Positions 20,050 to 58,900 of a DNA stretch of 64,000 bases are shown piece after piece (position 1 is the first letter of the stretch; each line of letters opens with the position of its first letter). The translations under genes were made by a program, and so were the position numbers. The notes under the pieces were generated by a model. That model was not told where the DNA came from and did no database searches. It worked only from the letters and a program-made list of their open reading frames with translations. Origin of the DNA: Yuukianura sp. NJ FZ-2021 (taxonomy: Eukaryota); contig CM102287.1 in assembly GCA_046563655.1 (NCBI GenBank), forward strand, positions 8,184,001 through 8,248,000, written 5' to 3'.

Positions 20050-23000
20050 TTCAAATCAAAATGTATTTAATTGAACACTCATCAAATTCTAGCTTGATTG
20101 AAGTAGGCTACACCTAACCTAAATTTAAAGTTAATACTAATAGCAATTTGAAATTATCCTGGTTTACGTTTAGAATTTAAAACGGAGATCTTTATCCAAA
20201 CAATATAATCTCCACTTTAGTCTAAAACAAAGTCTTTCAAGAGAAAGTTTTTCAACAACATAGTTTTTTTTAGAAACGGTCTAAATTTTCCAAAAGTTAA
20301 CTTAAACTAGCCTAAACGTGTTTGAGTCAACACTTGAGTAATAATATTACCAATTAATGAACAAAACAAACTTGTTTTCTTTTTGAAACTTTCCAATTTA
20401 AAGCCAAATTTCTACAGTAGAGTTTTAAAAATTCTAAAATTTTCTAAAAATTTACACTTGTAACTCGAAACCACGTGTGTTTACATACGTATAACAGTTT
20501 TCTCTTTGTTCAAATTTTTGTTTTTCTCAACTAGGTTTCCACTCAAGGCTTATTAAGAATTACGTATAATTTCAGTTTCATTATTCCAGTTTTATAAATT
20601 ACGTTTCAGGGTTTACACTTAATTTCAAATTCGTTAGCCTAACATTAGCCTACCTAACGTAACTTTCCCAATTGATTAACCAGTGTTGGCAGCACCCCCA
20701 CCCCACTGGGGACGGGGATGGGGATTATTGGGGTTTTCCCCACCCTCGGAGATGGGGATTTGGGGCTGTGTGGGGATTTCGTTTTTTTTATCCAAAATGG
20801 CTGACTGTTCTTTGTGTTTTTTAATATTATATCAGGGAAATAATGGGATTCTGAACTTCCGGTATTGAATATTTTATATTATATATTATGTATAAATATC
20901 TTATATTTATTATATTACATTTATATAATAATATATGTAACATATTATGTTACAGACATTATAAATATCATTAGGCTTAGCCTTTTACATACTACGTAGT
21001 TATAATATAATAATAATTGTATAATAATATACTATAAATAATATAACAAAAATTATATTATATATTTTAAATAATATTTAATATAAAATAGTCAACGCCG
21101 GAATCAAATTAAAAAATTTAATAACGATGGATAACAACAAAGAACAAAACGGGATGGAGTGTGGGAATGTTCGGGGTGGAGCTACACTGAATTCTGGGTT
21201 TGCGCAGACGCTGCGCATGCGCTGTACAAAACATCGCCAGGGCCCCGATAATCCCCAAATCCCCGGGAATTTGGGGTTAACCCCATTTTCCCGGGGGAAT
21301 CATCAAATCCCCGGGGAAAAGCCAACACTGTGATTAACTAACTAAATTTACAACTTTTAACTCTGCTCATCTTTACAGTTCTAATCGACAGCAATTCCAC
21401 GTCCACTTTTTAAAAAAATCTAAACAACTCTCCACTACTTACTCGTTTACAAATTGTAAACAACTTTCCTAAACAATTCGGTTTCATTCATTGAGAGAGG
21501 TTTGAAGTTGACACTTAAATTTTTTAAGCTGCTTTGGCTCTTAACTGGCCCACTGACTTCCATAACTTTTCCTTTGATTCTTGCCGATTCAAGTGCCAAT
21601 TTCGCAATTTCGCAAAAACTTAAATTGGCAATGTCTCAGTCAAGGGCATCGAAATGTGTCTGTCCCACACCAAGTTGTTAAAGTCAGACAAGAATCAACG
21701 GATTGAATTACAGGAATCAGACAGGCTATTAACTCCAGCTTAAATAGGACCACTAAATTTAAATAACTTATGTTACACTAATATTATGTTAACTTAACTA
21801 CACTAACATTGACATAACGGGATCTTAGATACACAGAAAGCTAAGGGATTAAAGTAATATCAAATTAGTAATTTAGATTTTGTAAATAAAAGTTTAAACT
21901 AAATTTTTTACAAACGTAAATACAAGAGTCAGCAAAGTGAATATGCGACTTAAAGCTTTGAGCACAAACAGGGCAATGGGAATTTGACAAATTTCAAATT
22001 TTTTACAATTTTCGGAGTTCTACAATTTACGGTTTCAAATGTACAATTTTGATGTTTCTTTAAAAAGCGAATTATTTACAAAGCCTTAAAGTGAATGATG
22101 AGTTGAACGTGATTAAAATGACAAATTGCAAATGAGCAGCCACTTTTTTACGAATTGAAGTGAAAGACGGAGAGGGCTCAAAATGGCAATTTTGAATTGA
22201 ATTTTTTTAGAATTCAATTCCATTTTGCAATGCAAGCACACAAGTGTGGAGTAGATCAAAAATTTTGAATTAAGCTAAATTTAAATTAAATTAAATTGTT
22301 ACTGGAAAATAAAATGTTGAAATGAAAATTTTAGTGATTTCGTTCAAAAACTGTAGCCTCACAGAGAAACAACAGAATATAACTTGCAAAACGTTTTTTG
22401 TTTTCATAAAACATTTAAAAAATTTTAAAACCGAACTTAAGTTCTGAAATTTTAGTACAACTAAAGTTGAATTCTGAGTTTTTAAAATTTTAGCACGTAT
22501 TTTGAATTACATGATGGAAAGATGGTGGCATTCTGTACAGTTAACCTTTGAACTTATAATTATACCCTCAAGTTAATACGTATTCGGTTTCTGAAACACA
22601 GTTTTTAACACGTACAGTGACATTTAACACCCGAAAATTTCTATTCATAATAAGAAATGGATTGCTTTTTTCTGGTTTTTTAGAAAAGTCTATTCTAAAA
22701 CAAGCTGCACCCGATTCTGAAACTAGTTTTAAATAAAAAATTAATTTTAGACTGTCTAAATTTCTAGATTTGTCATTAGTTCAAAAAACTTTGCAAACAA
22801 TTGTCACCAGTTATTGCACTCTTAATTACTACGATTGGAATTCCTAAGGCTTAGCATAAGTTAAACAGTTAAAATTCGCGCTAACGTATGATTTTAACGT
22901 TAATTTTAACCCTACCTTAGGATTTTTGCGTTAAAACTGCAGTTACCTAACCTTATAAATATTACTAGGAGTTGCATTTTCATTTTTTTAGTCTAACAAA

Positions 23001-23157
23001 CTGAGGTCAACAACATACGTATATTGTTTAAAATTGGATTTCCTTTAAGTTACGTTATGGATGTGTCATAGCTCCTAACCCTTGGTAAAATGAGAGTTTC
23101 CCACACGGTGGGGCATATGGCGGGGCATGGTGGGTCAACTAGAGCCACCGCTGTAGT
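20050..23157 (-). other. abd-A: putative long abd-A 3' UTR (distal end uncertain)
   Basis: AT-rich region immediately downstream of the stop, containing six iab-4/iab-8-type ACGTAT cores. A candidate AUUAAA lies at 20071-20066. The end point is a guess. Confidence 0.45.
20681..21330. mobile_element. non-autonomous hAT-superfamily element (MITE), 650 bp
   Basis: Perfect 10-bp terminal inverted repeats CAGTGTTGGC (20681-20690) and GCCAACACTG (21321-21330). An 8-bp target-site duplication TGATTAAC lies at 20673-20680 and 21331-21338. It has G/C-run subterminal repeats (GGGGAT/ATCCCC), a very AT-rich core and no transposase ORF. Confidence 0.92.
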
Positions 23158-23667
23158 TTATTTCGACTGCGGTGAGTCTATAGGTGAAATTCGGTCGTCC
23201 TTGAGAATGGACGAAGTGTCAGAGTTGCTACTTGGGGAAGAGCCCATCATCATTTTCCCGCCATCCCGGTCTCCATTGCCCCCCATCAGGGGAAGTCCCA
23301 TGCCCCCCAGTCCGAATCCAATCCCACCGAGCCCCACCAGTCCCCCCATGCCCTTAGCATGATCTGGCAGAAGAGGATGGTGATGTCCATGTTCCATGAA
23401 GGATCCAGGATGATGCGTAGTCTTGTTGGAGCTTATGGAGCTGGAACTGCTACTGCCCGATTTGTCCCGGTTTTTACTTTCGCCGTTTTCACTCGGTCGA
23501 TCTCGGTCACGATCGGAACGTTCTCGAGATGATCGATTTTTGTCACCACTGGAGTCTCCTGACTTGTTTGAATGTTTGTCGCTTGTGTGCTCTTCACGCT
23601 CACGACGAGCCTGTTCGTTAATTTCTTTGACTGCTCGGAGTTCTTTCTTTAGTTTCATCCGTCGGTT
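23158..23667 (-). CDS. abd-A: abdominal-A coding exon 3 (end of homeodomain, UbdA peptide, C-terminal tail, stop)
   Basis: Acceptor TAG|AAC CGA CGG ATG. Encodes NRRMKLKKELRAVKEINEQARRERE, the diagnostic Abd-A form of the UbdA motif, and runs to TAA at 23160-23158. Spliced CDS is 505+188+510=1203 nt, or 400 aa plus stop. Confidence 0.95.
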   Translation of the reverse strand, partial: NRRMKLKKELRAVKEINEQARREREEHTSDKHSNKSGDSSGDKNRSSRERSDRDRDRPSENGESKNRDKSGSSSSSSISSNKTTHHPGSFMEHGHHHPLLPDHAKGMGGLVGLGGIGFGLGGMGLPLMGGNGDRDGGKMMMGSSPSSNSDTSSILKDDRISPIDSPQSK

Positions 23668-24049
<382 letters not shown>

Positions 24050-36404: not shown

Positions 36405-38023
36405 ACTCAAAGTCTTCCTTTGAAAACGAAAGGAAATTGGAGTCCCTTGTTCAAAGATACGCAGACTTGAATGTAGCCATAAATTGAGGCAGAGGACTCA
36501 CCTTCCAAGGAAAGACAAAAAGTTAGCCTGTCCATAAGGGAGGGGACACTTTTATACACGCTGGAGAACTCTTTGGACAGTCGTGACATGTCAAATCAAA
36601 ATCTCCCTCATCGTTGTTTGATGTTTTCAAACAAGTTTGGAAAAAAAAAGTAAACAATTCTGTGTACAAGTTCTAACAACGAAAAAAGACATTTTGAGCC
36701 GTTTTTATATTGTATGGGGGCGGGGAAACATGTTTGGTTATTATGGTGGTTAAGAGCGTTAAGCCTTTGCAGATTCATAGCGGAATGAAATCTTAATGCG
36801 AATTGGAGGATCGTAAAGTTAGGTCTTGGAGAAGTGTTAAAGCGAAGACCTAGAGCCATTTACGTCCGTAATTTTTAATTAAATGATACTTGGCATGAGC
36901 AGGCCCAATAAAACACGCCCTGCAGCATACGAATGAAACAACAACTTTTTAGTGTTGCACGATTCCTGGGTTTAACGTTTGGTGTTAACGTTTGCGTCGG
37001 AGTTACAAATATTGAAACAAGTCCAGGTGACTAACATGTTTAGTAAATACGTAGGTGACATAAACTTCAAAACAAAAATGTGAAAAAAAGTCAACAGCTG
37101 TTTTTGTTTAGTCCAAATCGAAATTTCAACCAAAAAGAAAAAATTGTTTGTTTTTTGCTAAGTTTTAACGCCGGTTAGAGTTTTGCTTGAAATTGTGATA
37201 GAAAATTTTTAACTTCGAAAACAGTTTTGTTGGAATATCTTGTTTGGAGAAAGTTGAAAAGAAAAATTCATTCAACAATCAATAAATTGCGTGTTTTTTA
37301 AATTTGAATTTTGGCAGAGTTGCATTGGTTTACAAGTTTTGAGTTGAATACGGATTGTATATTTGGAAATTTCGAAATTGGATTTAGCTAAATAATGGGA
37401 GATTATTTTTCAAAGTTGACTGTGTTAGGATTTTCCATTTGCCAATCCGATTTAATGAACCATTTGTTTACTAGACATGATTTTTAAGTTGTGTCAGACG
37501 GAGATTTGGAGTCATAATTCCTTCCAACTGGAAATTGAAAATAGTGAACACTGGTGGATGGTGGTAGTAACCAAGATTACTGGAAATGAGCAAATACATA
37601 TTCTTCACAGCAAATCTTTCTACTTCAAATCCCAAATGGAAACCACAAAAATTAATGGAAAATGGCAACGGGCCAAATCCGATTCACTTTTCTTCAAACG
37701 AAGGAGGTTCAACAAATTCAAAAGTTCCATTCGTGTACAATACTCTTTTGCAGCAAAAATACAAATTCCGAAAGTCTATTCGCCTCAAAAATCGAGTGCC
37801 AATTTTCATCAAAGTTGAACATAAAACAGACCTAACAACTTTATGATTTTTAGGATCCAAAAGTACTGGAAGGTGGAAGGAATTGTTCCGAAGTCGGAGC
37901 TGAAACGACCAGATCCGACTCCAAATCAAATCCAAGCAAGAGTCAAAGAGTTCGGTTTGAAGTGAGTTTCAAAATTTGAATTTTCAACTTTTTTTTTAAA
38001 TCTGAACTAAAATTTGAGCTTAC

Positions 38024-38528
38024 CAGTGATGGACATCCATGGATAGCGCGGGATGTCCGGCATGCCCTGGCCTCCTTGCCCTCCAAGATGGTCTCCCCCC
38101 GAGGCAGCAACTGCAGCTTGATGATAGAACTGCGCAGCGGCAGCGATTCCAGCGGCCATGGAACTCTGATGTCCAGCAGCATTGGCAGCTAAGTTTGCAT
38201 AGTTGACCATAGAGTCAGCAACAGGTCCAGCAGAATAACGTTTGTCTACAACGCTACTACTCAAAGTATTCATAGAATTCATGCCTTCACCTCCTGCGCC
38301 GACGCCCAAGTGGGATCCGAAGCCGATTCCTCCCGAGGCTGAGATGGCTGCTGCTGCTGCGGCAAATGGAGACTGTTGACCAATCGAAACGTAGGGATAC
38401 ATCCGAGCAGCAGCGGCGGCAATTGACGAGTAGTTTCCGGCAGCATTCACAGCAGCAGCGGCAGCAACTGAAGACCCATCTGCTTGACCGTACTTGGGCA
38501 GCATTCCTTCCATAAATTTTGAGTTCAT
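38024..38528 (-). CDS. abd-A: abdominal-A Hox protein, coding exon 1 (N-terminus through the YPWM hexapeptide)
   Basis: Translation contains MNSKFMEGMLPKY, AARMYPYVS, DSMVNY, AAQFYHQAA and PDIPRYPWMSIT, all recognisable arthropod Abd-A blocks. It ends at a donor ACTG|GTAAGC (phase 1, intron starts 38023). There is an in-frame TAG upstream of the ATG. Confidence 0.95.
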
Positions 38529-54700: not shown

Positions 54701-55925
54701 ATTTCGTTTTTGCAATTTTTGATTTCGAAAAATTAGATGAAATTATTGAAATGTTGAAGATTCGAGAGATGAGATGGTGAAGGATAAGGCGGGTGGGATG
54801 ACGAAGATGCAGAATCCGCCCTCAGTTGAGCTCGAGGCTAGGCGCAGAGGCAAATGGTTGAAAAAAATATGGATCTGAAAGTAAAGGAGAGGCTGAAGAC
54901 GAGGACCAAGAAGATGAAGATGAAAATCCTTTGAAAAGGTTAGGCAAAACCTAGCCTATGTTTCCTTATTCACCCCATTCCACGCAGATTTCCTCAGTGT
55001 ACTCAGAGCACAAGTGCTCAAGGCGCAGTTCCACTTTTTCCAAATCCAACATATTTTCTAAAAAGCGTCTTTGCTGCCATTGGACTTCAACCGAACTCAA
55101 AAGGAGACTTCGGAGTTCCGAATATCCCTCCACCGCCATCGTTCAGGGTAAGACGCTGAACCAAATCCTTGTTCTTAAGCCCTCTCAAATTCTAGAATAG
55201 AAAATAGAAAGACAAAGATTTCTTGCCCGGCTTCTGCAAGAGTCAGACCTTGGTTTCAATTTCATTCTCTGTTTTGGTTTGTTCTCGAATCCAACCGGGT
55301 AGCTTTCACTTCCTCCAAGTTTATTTCTACAAGAAACACAAGTCCAAAGACACCGCAAAACCATTTTCAAAACTTTTCTTCCTAAATAAACAAATTGACA
55401 AGGTTAGTTTCATCAACAAACCCACAGACTCGTTGACAGGAAGCAGAAGCTACTAGGTTTGAAATTTCTAAATAAGTTTATTTTTAATTAGTAAAGTAAT
55501 ACAATTAATAATTAACTTAACAATTATGAAAACTAATAACTAAAAACATAGTTTACAAGTTAAAACTGTCAAAAATGCTATTTCTTTAAATTGAAAATAT
55601 GGAAACTTTTGAAATTGTTGAACTTTTTTAGCTTAAGGTTTCACTTTTAAGAAAATTTCGAGTCGAGGTCAACGCAAGGGCTCTTGGTGGACTTGACCTT
55701 TGTATTTTTTGCTTTCTTTTTTGCTGCTGTAAACCCTTTAAGTCCCCTAATTACCCCTTTCCCTTGTAGTGTAAAAAGTTATATGACTCTATTGTAAAAA
55801 GTTAAGTGTAAAGTGGCAGGTTGTGTTGAGAAATTGTAAATTCTTGGTAAGTTTTTTTTCTGGTGGAAGATGACCCTGGACCAAAGATGCTGCTGCTGCT
55901 GAAGATGAAGATTTTTTGTCACTTT

Positions 55926-55994
55926 CCTGAACGTATACTAAATGTATCCTGAGTGCTTTGAGATCTCCGGTATACCTTCAGTATACGTGCCAGG
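55926..55994 (+). ncRNA. mir-iab-4: mir-iab-4 precursor hairpin (5p 55931-55952 ACGUAUACUAAAUGUAUCCUGA; 3p from 55968 CGGUAUACCUUCAGUAUACGU)
   Basis: The 5' arm differs by one base from canonical miR-iab-4-5p (ACGUAUACUGAAUGUAUCCUGA) and the 3' arm matches the canonical 3p core. The arms pair, with a basal CCUG/CAGG stem. It sits upstream of and antisense to abd-A, as expected from synteny. Confidence 0.95.
55926..55994 (-). ncRNA. mir-iab-8: mir-iab-8 (antisense strand of the iab-4 hairpin); 5p homologue approx. 55990-55968 GCACGUAUACUGAAGGUAUACCG
   Basis: The reverse complement folds into a comparable hairpin. The ACGUAUACUGAAGGUAUACCG core is identical to canonical iab-8-5p but the first two nucleotides differ. 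Expression is inferred only from homology. Confidence 0.75.
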
Positions 55995-58900
55995 CGAGAA
56001 CAAATCAACCAAGATCAAGGACAACTTCAACTTCCTTAATTTCAAACTCTGCAATTAAAAATTAAAGTTAAGTGAGGTGATTACATTGAGTTAAGCAGGT
56101 TATAACTTACAACTTTCGTTAGCTAGATTTTCATTGCGATAAATTCCGTGTGAAAATGGGTAGGTTTATAATAAAAAATTGTATTGAATAAGCTATTACT
56201 GCGTTAAAATCCTTTTAGCTATAAATGTATTTAACTCGAATCGAAAGGTATATATCTTATTGTAACATATTTCAAAAATTAAAAAAAAGTCATAAATGAA
56301 ACTCATTCTTTTAATTAATTTAATTATTTGAGTTTTTCAAATAATTGTAAAATTGAGGAATGGTGGAATGTTTCTTTTAATTTTAGTACAAAGAAATAAC
56401 AACATAACTTTGAAAATTTCGAGGTTTTTCTGTTTGTCAATGTCGGATAGTCTAAATTCAAACTTTGGAATTTAAAAAATAAAACAACACTCTTGAGTGT
56501 ATAATTATTGAAGCGAAGCAGTTCAAAAATTTGTCAAAAATCAAAAATAAATTGAAAAAGTCTAGCTGAAAATCGTAACTGCAAGATGTTCAGCAGCATA
56601 ACCGTCAAATCATTATTTTGTTCAAATAAGCTGTAAAATAATTTCTATCGCTTATTGACTTGATCAGATACTGCAATCGCTTCAAATTCCTGACAAATGG
56701 GTTTCGAAGAAAAATGTCGAATTTTTGCATAGTTTCACAGCCGTTTCACTTTTTCGCAAACATAAAAAGCCCCTGATCATATTCTGTCTTTAGATCAGAT
56801 CACCATTCTTCCTCTGGATAGAAATGTCCTTAACTATAAATAAATAAAAAAATTAACTCTTAACCAATAAAATTCGTTTTTACTAAAAAACCAAGTTTGA
56901 TATTTCAACTTGATTTTTCTTTAGAAAAACTGTAACAGAGTCAACATTTTTTTTGGTGTGGATTGGACAGGACCTTGTAAGAGGCAGATGTTTGACAGGA
57001 CACGAAGACAATGGCTTTGGAATCGGGGCGGGAGGGAAGCAAAAAAATGGAGGCAGAAGGACTTTTGGACTGGCGAAAATGAGGGTTTAATAAGGGTCCC
57101 CTTGTCCCTTGGCCTCTCCGTAGCATTAGTCTTGCTAACCTTACACTGTCCTATTCCACATCTTCCTAAAATCCTATCTTTGTTCCATAAGTCATAATGG
57201 AGAATCCCTCTCCACTGCAACTTTCCCAGATTACGTCAATTCATTCCAAAAAGCCCTTCAAACATCTCTGTGTCCATTTTGAACAAACAAACGTCAGTTG
57301 TGCCCTTAACTTCCAGCAGAAGAGGAGTGAGTCTTTAGTAACTTAAAACGAATTTTCAACGGCCAAAATTGAATTTCAAAATTTTGGCAAAATGTGGAGA
57401 CGCCGAGAGATTCTGCAAAACGTAACTACGAATCCCGTGATTCAAAATTTGGACGTAAGGATTTTGGTAAGTCTAGCTGTCGAGGACAAAATTTAAGTTC
57501 AAAGTTACGATCTCATATGATTTTTTGAAAAGCTGTGAAGTACTTTTTCATTACCAAAGAACATTGAGATGAAAAGATTTGTCAAGAACTATATTTTTAA
57601 AAATTTCATTAAAACTATTCATTATTTAGAAATAATTAAAATTTCCCACCATTTCATGACAGCAAGATTAGAATTAAGTGGCTGGTCTGCTATAGGCAAA
57701 TATAAAACTTGAGTGATCTGGATCATATCAATTCAGAAGCTGAGACAAGGTCACACGGGTTCACTGAAAATTAGCTCCATTTAATGTTAAGCTGTTAACT
57801 ACTACTTTAATTTTGCAGAAAAAAATGGACAAGTCAATTAGCTTGTGAAACTTTGCCTTTCAGCGTCTCTGCTTCATTTTTTGTTCAAAGTCATTTTTTG
57901 CTTGATCTTTGATCTCTGCCTTTCCTTCTGAGACGCTTCTTAAGAAACTCAATTTCCAAGACCATGGGAAAAGAACAGGCAAAAAATAGGAAATGGTCCA
58001 GCATCCCTTGGATTTGGATCCTTCGCAGCAGCATCCGTGAGATCCAGAACGAAATAAGCTTGAACGAATGTTACACAAAAAACGTTGTATTTTGGACAAA
58101 AAATTTGAACTGAAACCTTTACGTTCTAAATCAGGATCACGAGAGGATGTTGCCTTTAGGACATGACGGAGACAATTCTATTGTTACCAATTCAGTGACT
58201 ATGCTTGCTTAAGAAAAACGCTTGGACATGGACAACTATACAGCCTAAGTTAACAATGAGATGAATATATCCTTATGAGCACAATGTCACTGCGCAAACA
58301 TTTTGTTAGGTTTGCTTTGATTGCATGGTTTCTGTAGTCTTCAACGTAGGTGACCGTAAGAAATGAAAGATTGGATTGCGCAATCGAATCACGTCGATTC
58401 TTTATCGGTCCCAAGAGGACATTAAAGATTTTGGTCATTTGTGATAATCATAATTCAGAAGCATAAGATTGAATTAGTTGGCGCATTTGATTTCCAAATA
58501 CACTTAAACATAGAAATTATAAAGTAGAAATTATAAAATATAAAACTAGAATCAAAATGGTTTATTTTCTCCAATAAATAGTTTGGAAAAACTTTTTTTT
58601 TTGTCTTTAATTGTTTTTTTGAATTCCGTAAAACTACATGCTAGACTTTGCTAAAAAATTTAAAAATTGCTAAACTAAATTACGAAAATCAAAACAAAAA
58701 TTCATTACTTAACAGCCTTGTGAGAAAATTTGAGTTCTAGAGTTGTGCAGCATAAAAAAACTGTAGATTTGGATTTGCAACCTCCTCGATTCCGCGGCAT
58801 CCTAGTTTCTAATTTGCTTGTTGAATTATTTTTTTTACCTTCAAGCAGTACTTTTAATATGTGCGGACTTAGAAACTCATTTTCAAAATTTGGATTCAAA

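Follow-up and report, generated by a model that had tools for sequence, protein, structure and literature searches.

Two derived bases at the predicted 5′ end of iab-8-5p in a springtail mir-iab-4/iab-8 locus upstream of abd-A

The abd-A gene and the mir-iab-4/iab-8 hairpin

The window, by which we mean the whole 64-kb stretch of DNA analysed here, carries abd-A on its minus strand. The first coding exon, delimited by its open reading frame and by similarity to Allacma fusca, occupies positions 38020-38528, with the start at 38528 and an approximate splice donor; an open frame at 23717-24049 holds the homeobox exon, its translation containing IKIWFQ, and the last coding exon, at 23158-23667, ends with the stop codon TAA at 23158-23160. 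Exon 1 is 59% identical to A. fusca abd-A over 93% of the query and 67% identical to the Folsomia candida sequence over 32%, the next named match being the mayfly Cloeon at 40%, and the best matches in a near-length search lie at 56-63%. These abd-A similarities indicate a springtail that is close to neither Allacma nor Folsomia. The C-terminus of the protein, encoded at 23161-23200 (ending in DDRISPIDSPQSK), has near-identical counterparts in Allacma and Folsomia and none in Tribolium; this tail, to the final ...SPIDSP..K, is common to both springtails and may be a springtail-specific motif.

Approximately 17 kb upstream of abd-A exon 1, positions 55924-55996 form a hairpin on both strands, mir-iab-4 on the plus and mir-iab-8 on the minus strand, identified by a match to RF00725, by its folds and by the alignment of both arms to 13 other distinct hairpins. 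iab-8 and abd-A share the minus strand, and, read in the antisense direction, abd-A follows the hairpin 17 kb downstream; Abd-B is not contained in the window. The RF00725 mir-iab-4 covariance model matches the minus strand over its full length (1-71) with 67 bits (E 4.8e-15) and the plus strand with 25.8 bits. Because 67 bits is below the gathering score of 73, a default Rfam scan of the window lists no hairpin, and routine annotation would miss the locus. This true orthologue scores 6 bits under the RF00725 gathering score, and the Rfam 15 mir-iab-4 model is oriented as iab-8. The predicted folding energies are -31.2 kcal/mol on the plus strand (z -5.7) and -35.4 kcal/mol on the minus strand (z -6.4), and none of 200 shuffles was equally good for either strand. 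The antisense hairpin was more stable than the sense hairpin in all six species folded, a property that is not specific to the window. No other seed-carrying hairpin was found within the window, the best z at the nine other seed places being -1.9. Judged from its sequence, the locus is the orthologous springtail mir-iab-4/iab-8, upstream of abd-A.

The predicted iab-4-5p, at 55931-55952 on the plus strand, has an unaltered seed and A rather than G at nt 10 (55940), whereas the predicted iab-8-5p, placed by homology at 55968-55990 on the minus strand, begins with GC and not UU. The 3′ arm of the antisense hairpin, the source of iab-8-3p, spans 55928-55953 on the minus strand, with approximate ends drawn from the fold and the alignment. 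The duplex arms are conserved, with 43 invariant columns over 14 hairpins spanning both arms, and the only positions at which the window differs in these arms are nt 1-2 of iab-8-5p and nt 10 of iab-4-5p. Folding of the antisense strand pairs the new G with U and leaves the C as a one-base bulge, like one U in the canonical hairpins, and the lower stem measures approximately 13-14 nt on the 5′ side, the same as in canonical hairpins. The matching length of the lower stem and the matching place of the bulge argue, weakly, for an unchanged cut. The basal UG motif, which might have served to locate the cut, was judged too weak a guide in arthropods. As far as the predicted folds and the alignment can tell, the hairpin locus is not decaying, both duplex arms and the lower stem being intact.

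Two derived bases at the start of the predicted iab-8-5p

Positions 55968-55990 of the plus strand read CGGTATACCTTCAGTATACGTGC, the reverse complement of which starts GCACGTATACTGAAGG; the window sequence agrees with the sequence-only reading that 55989-55990 are GC on the plus strand and that the antisense 5p arm begins GCACGTATACTGAAGG. In L001, a locus of canonical type, the corresponding stretch begins UUACGUAU, compared with GCACGUAU in the window. The two derived bases are GC at 55989-55990 on the plus strand versus AA elsewhere, with G at antisense nt 1 (55990) and C at antisense nt 2 (55989) in place of the canonical U, and the RF00725 consensus has upper-case UU at these positions.

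The bases were compared with contigs assembled from sequencing reads. Contig record 3 of X1 (390 nt, depth 230.7), which may come from the source sample, covers 55704-56093 with no differences. Contig record 18 of X4 (419 nt, depth 2.94), which carries another organism label and belongs to another study than the window, covers 55675-56093 with two differences, the places of which are not listed; among the kinds of change listed for X4, G>A and C>A are absent, as is any change of a C. Without a G>A and a C>A change X4 cannot carry the canonical AA, while a G>C or G>T at 55989 would strictly be compatible with its two differences. The listed pieces of X2 end at 55965, and X5 spans only 35 nt outside the hairpin, so that neither run bears on the two bases. 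An assembly error, raised in the sequence-only reading as a source of the GC, is excluded by the X1 and X4 contigs. An artefact of any kind, whether it arose in assembly, in sequencing or from a rare allele, is very improbable, as no support for it was found beyond the possible identity of X1 with the source sample, and it is contradicted by the second-study contig X4, with its lack of G>A and C>A changes, and by the same GC in L016, a metagenome contig obtained independently and belonging to a diverged relative.

The hairpin lies in a 390-nt block without listed variants in X1 and X2, the flanks of which have many variants in both. Across 55300-56700, X1 and X2, which derive from one sample, place 42 and 45 contigs, respectively, with many alternative alleles over 1.4 kb. 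The X1/X2 sample is highly heterozygous or pooled, with the hairpin block as the exception. In run X2, a variant lacking 3 bases occurs in the CTG repeat at 55889-55901, directly upstream of the hairpin.

That the same variant might be common among arthropod orthologues, the other caveat attached to the sequence-only reading, was not borne out: GC is present in none of the 12 published iab-4 loci (PMC4862073, supplementary file 5) and in one of the 26 hairpin-type metagenome loci, L016, a relative of the window. In 10 of the 12 published loci, namely, those of fly, mosquito, beetle, wasp, bee, silkworm, Daphnia, centipede, a mite and a tick, ACGU is followed by AA. Both copies of the scorpion Mesobuthus martensii have AG, and hence their iab-8 reads CU; since this change touches nt 1 only, seed nt 2 is U in all 12. 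The metagenomes were scanned with a 21-mer of the 3p arm, leaving the next two bases unconstrained, and yielded 27 loci, 25 with AA, one with AC (L008) and one with GC (L016). Both arms are present in 25 of these; L023 ends at the contig end, and L008 is not a hairpin. The L008 match (401-421) is exact over the 21-mer of the 3p arm, on a contig with neither a 5p arm nor a hairpin, and may be due to chance or to unrelated sequence. A 19-mer of the 3p arm had no matches among genome contigs and none among viral contigs.

The alignment comprised the window and 13 of the 27 loci, one for each distinct hairpin, leaving aside 12 duplicates, L008 and L019 (AA, with an 82-nt loop). Columns nt 1-2 of iab-8-5p are TT in all 12 rows outside the window lineage, and nt 3-23 are invariant in all 14 distinct hairpins. 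In the consensus structure of this 14-row alignment, the nt 1-2 columns are unpaired, and seven lower-stem pairs show compensatory changes. Because the columns are unpaired, the constancy of UU is not due to pairing, suggestive of selection on the 5p sequence itself. We regard the GC change as real, rare and derived, and as situated at a position under sequence constraint.

At iab-4-5p nt 10 (55940), the window has A; G is found there in 12 of 12 published loci, and A also in L016 and L003. The A at 55940 corresponds to a G-U pair in the antisense fold and to an A-C mismatch in the sense fold. L003 has A at iab-4-5p nt 10 yet retains the canonical AA, and it may come from a further hexapod that branched early, in which case the GC change would be the later of the two.

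L016 (821 nt) aligns to the window over only 122 nt (87.7%) and 66 nt (78.8%). The 122-nt block, at 55907-56028, is contained in the 390-nt variant-free stretch of X1. Since L016 shares the GC yet aligns so little, the GC appears to be fixed and to predate the split of two well-diverged species. The second conserved block (55749-55807; 66 nt, 78.8%), located some 120 nt away from the hairpin towards its plus-strand 5′ side, may be part of the pri-miRNA or a regulatory element. L016 resembles the window in the GC, the 3′ side of the lower stem, the A at iab-4-5p nt 10, the flanks and a similar loop, and differs from it where the sense 5′ arm begins at its base (L016:341-461): three bases are substituted there, one of them being C at iab-4-5p nt 1, a position occupied by A in the other 24 loci having that arm. 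The side of L016 opposite the three substitutions (GCCAGGCGAG) is unaltered. In the antisense fold of L016, nt 1-3 are unpaired within a 3x2 internal loop, and its cut may be imprecise for that reason.

Predicted sites in abd-A and readings of the change

The abd-A 3′ region comprised the 2758 nt that follow the stop codon, with an unmapped UTR 3′ end, and expectations were derived from the rest of the strand. The core AUACGU, shared by the old and derived seed sites, occurs six times in the 2758 nt (0.36 expected), the old-seed site AUACGUA four times (0.05 expected) and the derived-seed site AUACGUG once (0.09 expected, P ~0.09). None of 5000 first-order Markov simulations reached the AUACGU or AUACGUA count, and the other enriched words of the region consist of A/T only. 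No seed sites for iab-4-5p, iab-4-3p or the antisense 3p arm are present in the 2758-nt region. The sequence-only reading had counted four canonical-seed sites and one new-seed site at 22493-22500, and these counts are right.

All the sites are on the minus strand. The old-seed sites AUACGUA are located at 23016-23022 (offset 135 from the stop codon, preceded by U), at 22577-22583 (offset 574), within the 8-mer AUACGUAA at 20560-20567 (7-mer from 20561; offset 2590, preceded by U) and at 20486-20492 (offset 2665, preceded by U); the core 6-mer AUACGU alone is found at 22884-22889 (offset 268). The derived-seed site AUACGUGC, at 22493-22500 (7-mer 22494-22500; offset 657), complements nt 1-8 of the derived sequence. 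The two distal old-seed sites are past the first AATAAA of the region, which is at offset 2246: the sites in 20486-20567 lie 340-420 nt beyond it and before the next ATTAAA, and their membership in the UTR is uncertain. They may mark an extended UTR isoform, as such isoforms are known for fly Hox genes in neurons. We also considered the palindromic sites (AUACGUAU) as DNA-level bZIP-type sites, a reading set aside because the flanks seem not to fit the PAR-bZIP consensus sites. The clustering of predicted seed-type sites indicates that abd-A is a target of the shared iab-8-5p core.

With the derived miRNA (nt 1-8 plus 3′ bases), the site at 22493-22500 has a predicted duplex energy of -15.8 kcal/mol, compared with -10.3 kcal/mol for a canonical-type miRNA. 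Pairing at nt 2 is lost between the derived miRNA and each of the four old sites, where its duplexes are 1.3-2.0 kcal/mol weaker. A rough composition estimate for the full 8-mer of the derived site is ~0.03; chance is a mildly unlikely source of the single derived-seed site, but it could be the source.

Of the readings considered, the most likely one, to which we give somewhat less than an even chance, is that the cut falls at the homologous place, which would make the predicted seed CACGUAU, with four weaker sites and one perfect match. We prefer it because the structure around the cut is preserved. Two fixed substitutions, shared with the diverged L016, have turned UU at the predicted nt 1-2 of iab-8-5p into GC, and the antisense hairpin presumably continues to be transcribed, with its cut at the homologous position. 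The resulting miRNA would start GCACGUAU, with nt 2-8 forming the seed CACGUAU, formerly UACGUAU; the four old-seed abd-A sites would drop to offset 6-mers (nt 3-8), and one site, fully complementary to nt 1-8, would remain. Argonaute disfavours a 5′ G, and the product would be loaded less favourably than one with a 5′ U. The predicted net outcome is a weaker and partly re-aimed repression of abd-A by iab-8-5p, with the iab-4 products and iab-8-3p expected to be unaffected. Against this reading, the four old-seed sites have outlasted a change that predates the split from L016, whereas long use of the new seed would be expected to lead to their decay or conversion. The canonical 5′ end of mature iab-8-5p is taken here from fly and beetle (miRBase). 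The seed change proposed in the sequence-only reading therefore stands to the extent that nt 2 of the predicted iab-8-5p is altered, and becomes a change of the mature seed provided that the 5′ end is as in fly and beetle, and the rewiring of a Hox miRNA circuit suggested in that reading would be a further, conjectural step.

A bolder version of the changed-seed reading, that the seed has mutated from UACGUAU to CACGUAU and is in use, that the four abd-A sites have been weakened and that a first new nt 1-8 site has arisen, strikes us as unlikely. If true, it would mean that a half-billion-year-old Hox miRNA-target pair is between two states in a springtail lineage, and it would illustrate, in nature, how seed turnover within a Hox cluster is followed by co-evolution of the targets.

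A rival account, additional to the new seed, shifted cut and loss of the sequence-only reading, and to which we likewise give rather low probability, holds that iab-8-5p is the minor (passenger) strand in this lineage, or became so with the 5′ U-to-G change, with iab-8-3p and the iab-4 products carrying the function. The substitution would then have little effect on targeting, and the general preference of Argonaute against a 5′ G fits such a role, but the unpaired UU kept in 12 of 12 other distinct hairpins points to selection on 5p, and the abd-A 3′ region is enriched for 5p-type sites, with none for the 3p-arm or iab-4 seeds. Two sets of published observations are nevertheless in its favour: in Tribolium and Apis, iab-8-3p is reported to be one to two orders of magnitude above the other antisense product (PMC3597655), and arm switching of iab-8 is reported among arthropods (PMC7523956).

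Somewhat less probable still is a shifted 5′ end, with Drosha cutting one or two bases further in, so that the derived bases would no longer fall inside the mature miRNA, or would do so only at its margin. With a start at C2, the seed would be ACGUAUA, and with a start at A3, CGUAUAC, the same as that of iab-4-5p. Starting at C2 would convert the six AUACGU sites into seed-type sites, namely, three 8-mers (UAUACGUA), one 7mer-A1 and two 6-mers, and would explain the persistence of the old sites because three of them become 8-mers; the placement of nt 1-3 of L016 within an internal loop is also consistent with a shift. However, the length of the lower stem and the place of the bulge, being those of canonical hairpins, favour an unchanged cut; no GUAUACG seed sites for the A3 start are found in the abd-A 3′ region; and for the C2 start, C is a poor 5′ base, and the U that would extend the pairing precedes three old-seed sites, that is, just three of the six AUACGU sites overall, which is not above composition. 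The least likely biological reading, and an improbable one, is that this lineage no longer has antisense iab-8 and maintains just the sense iab-4 hairpin, in line with a change that affects the iab-8-5p seed only and with the RF00725 score under the gathering threshold, but against the lineage's own changes, which keep the antisense pairing (G-U) and make mismatches in the sense fold, the greater stability of the antisense hairpin (though so in all six species folded) and the retention of 5p-type abd-A sites.

Comparison with known systems

Deeply conserved miRNAs hardly ever alter their seeds, since a single substitution redirects the entire set of targets. In the present basal hexapod lineage, one predicted seed base of a miRNA that regulates Hox genes is altered, and abd-A, its best-known target, keeps the old sites; the locus offers a concrete test case for the joint movement of a miRNA and its targets. 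To our knowledge, neither miRBase nor MirGeneDB has a springtail entry. The texts and supplements searched contained no statement on a springtail iab-8 sequence, and an earlier description is possible; the term 'iab' is absent from the text and one supplement of PMC10087712, and iab sequences are absent from one supplement of PMC8126727.

[quoted passage not shown] In fly, according to PMC8629391, abd-A is at the 3′ end of the iab-8 RNA, and the window is similar in that the iab-8 hairpin is on the abd-A strand. In millipedes, iab-8 represses posterior Hox genes, and arm usage switches among arthropods, as stated in PMC7523956. The seed shifting and arm switching of iab-4/8 described in PMC3597655 and PMC7523956 resemble the window in that the sequence that reads the targets changes and the hairpin is kept; in those cases, however, it is the cut site or the arm that changes, whereas in the window the predicted seed base itself is substituted. 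The closest published parallel in position is mir-iab-8 of Mesobuthus martensii, both Hox-cluster copies of which carry the sole published change in nt 1-2 among the 12 loci: in the scorpion, nt 1 alone is altered (CU) and the seed, nt 2-8, is intact, whereas in the window nt 2 is altered too.
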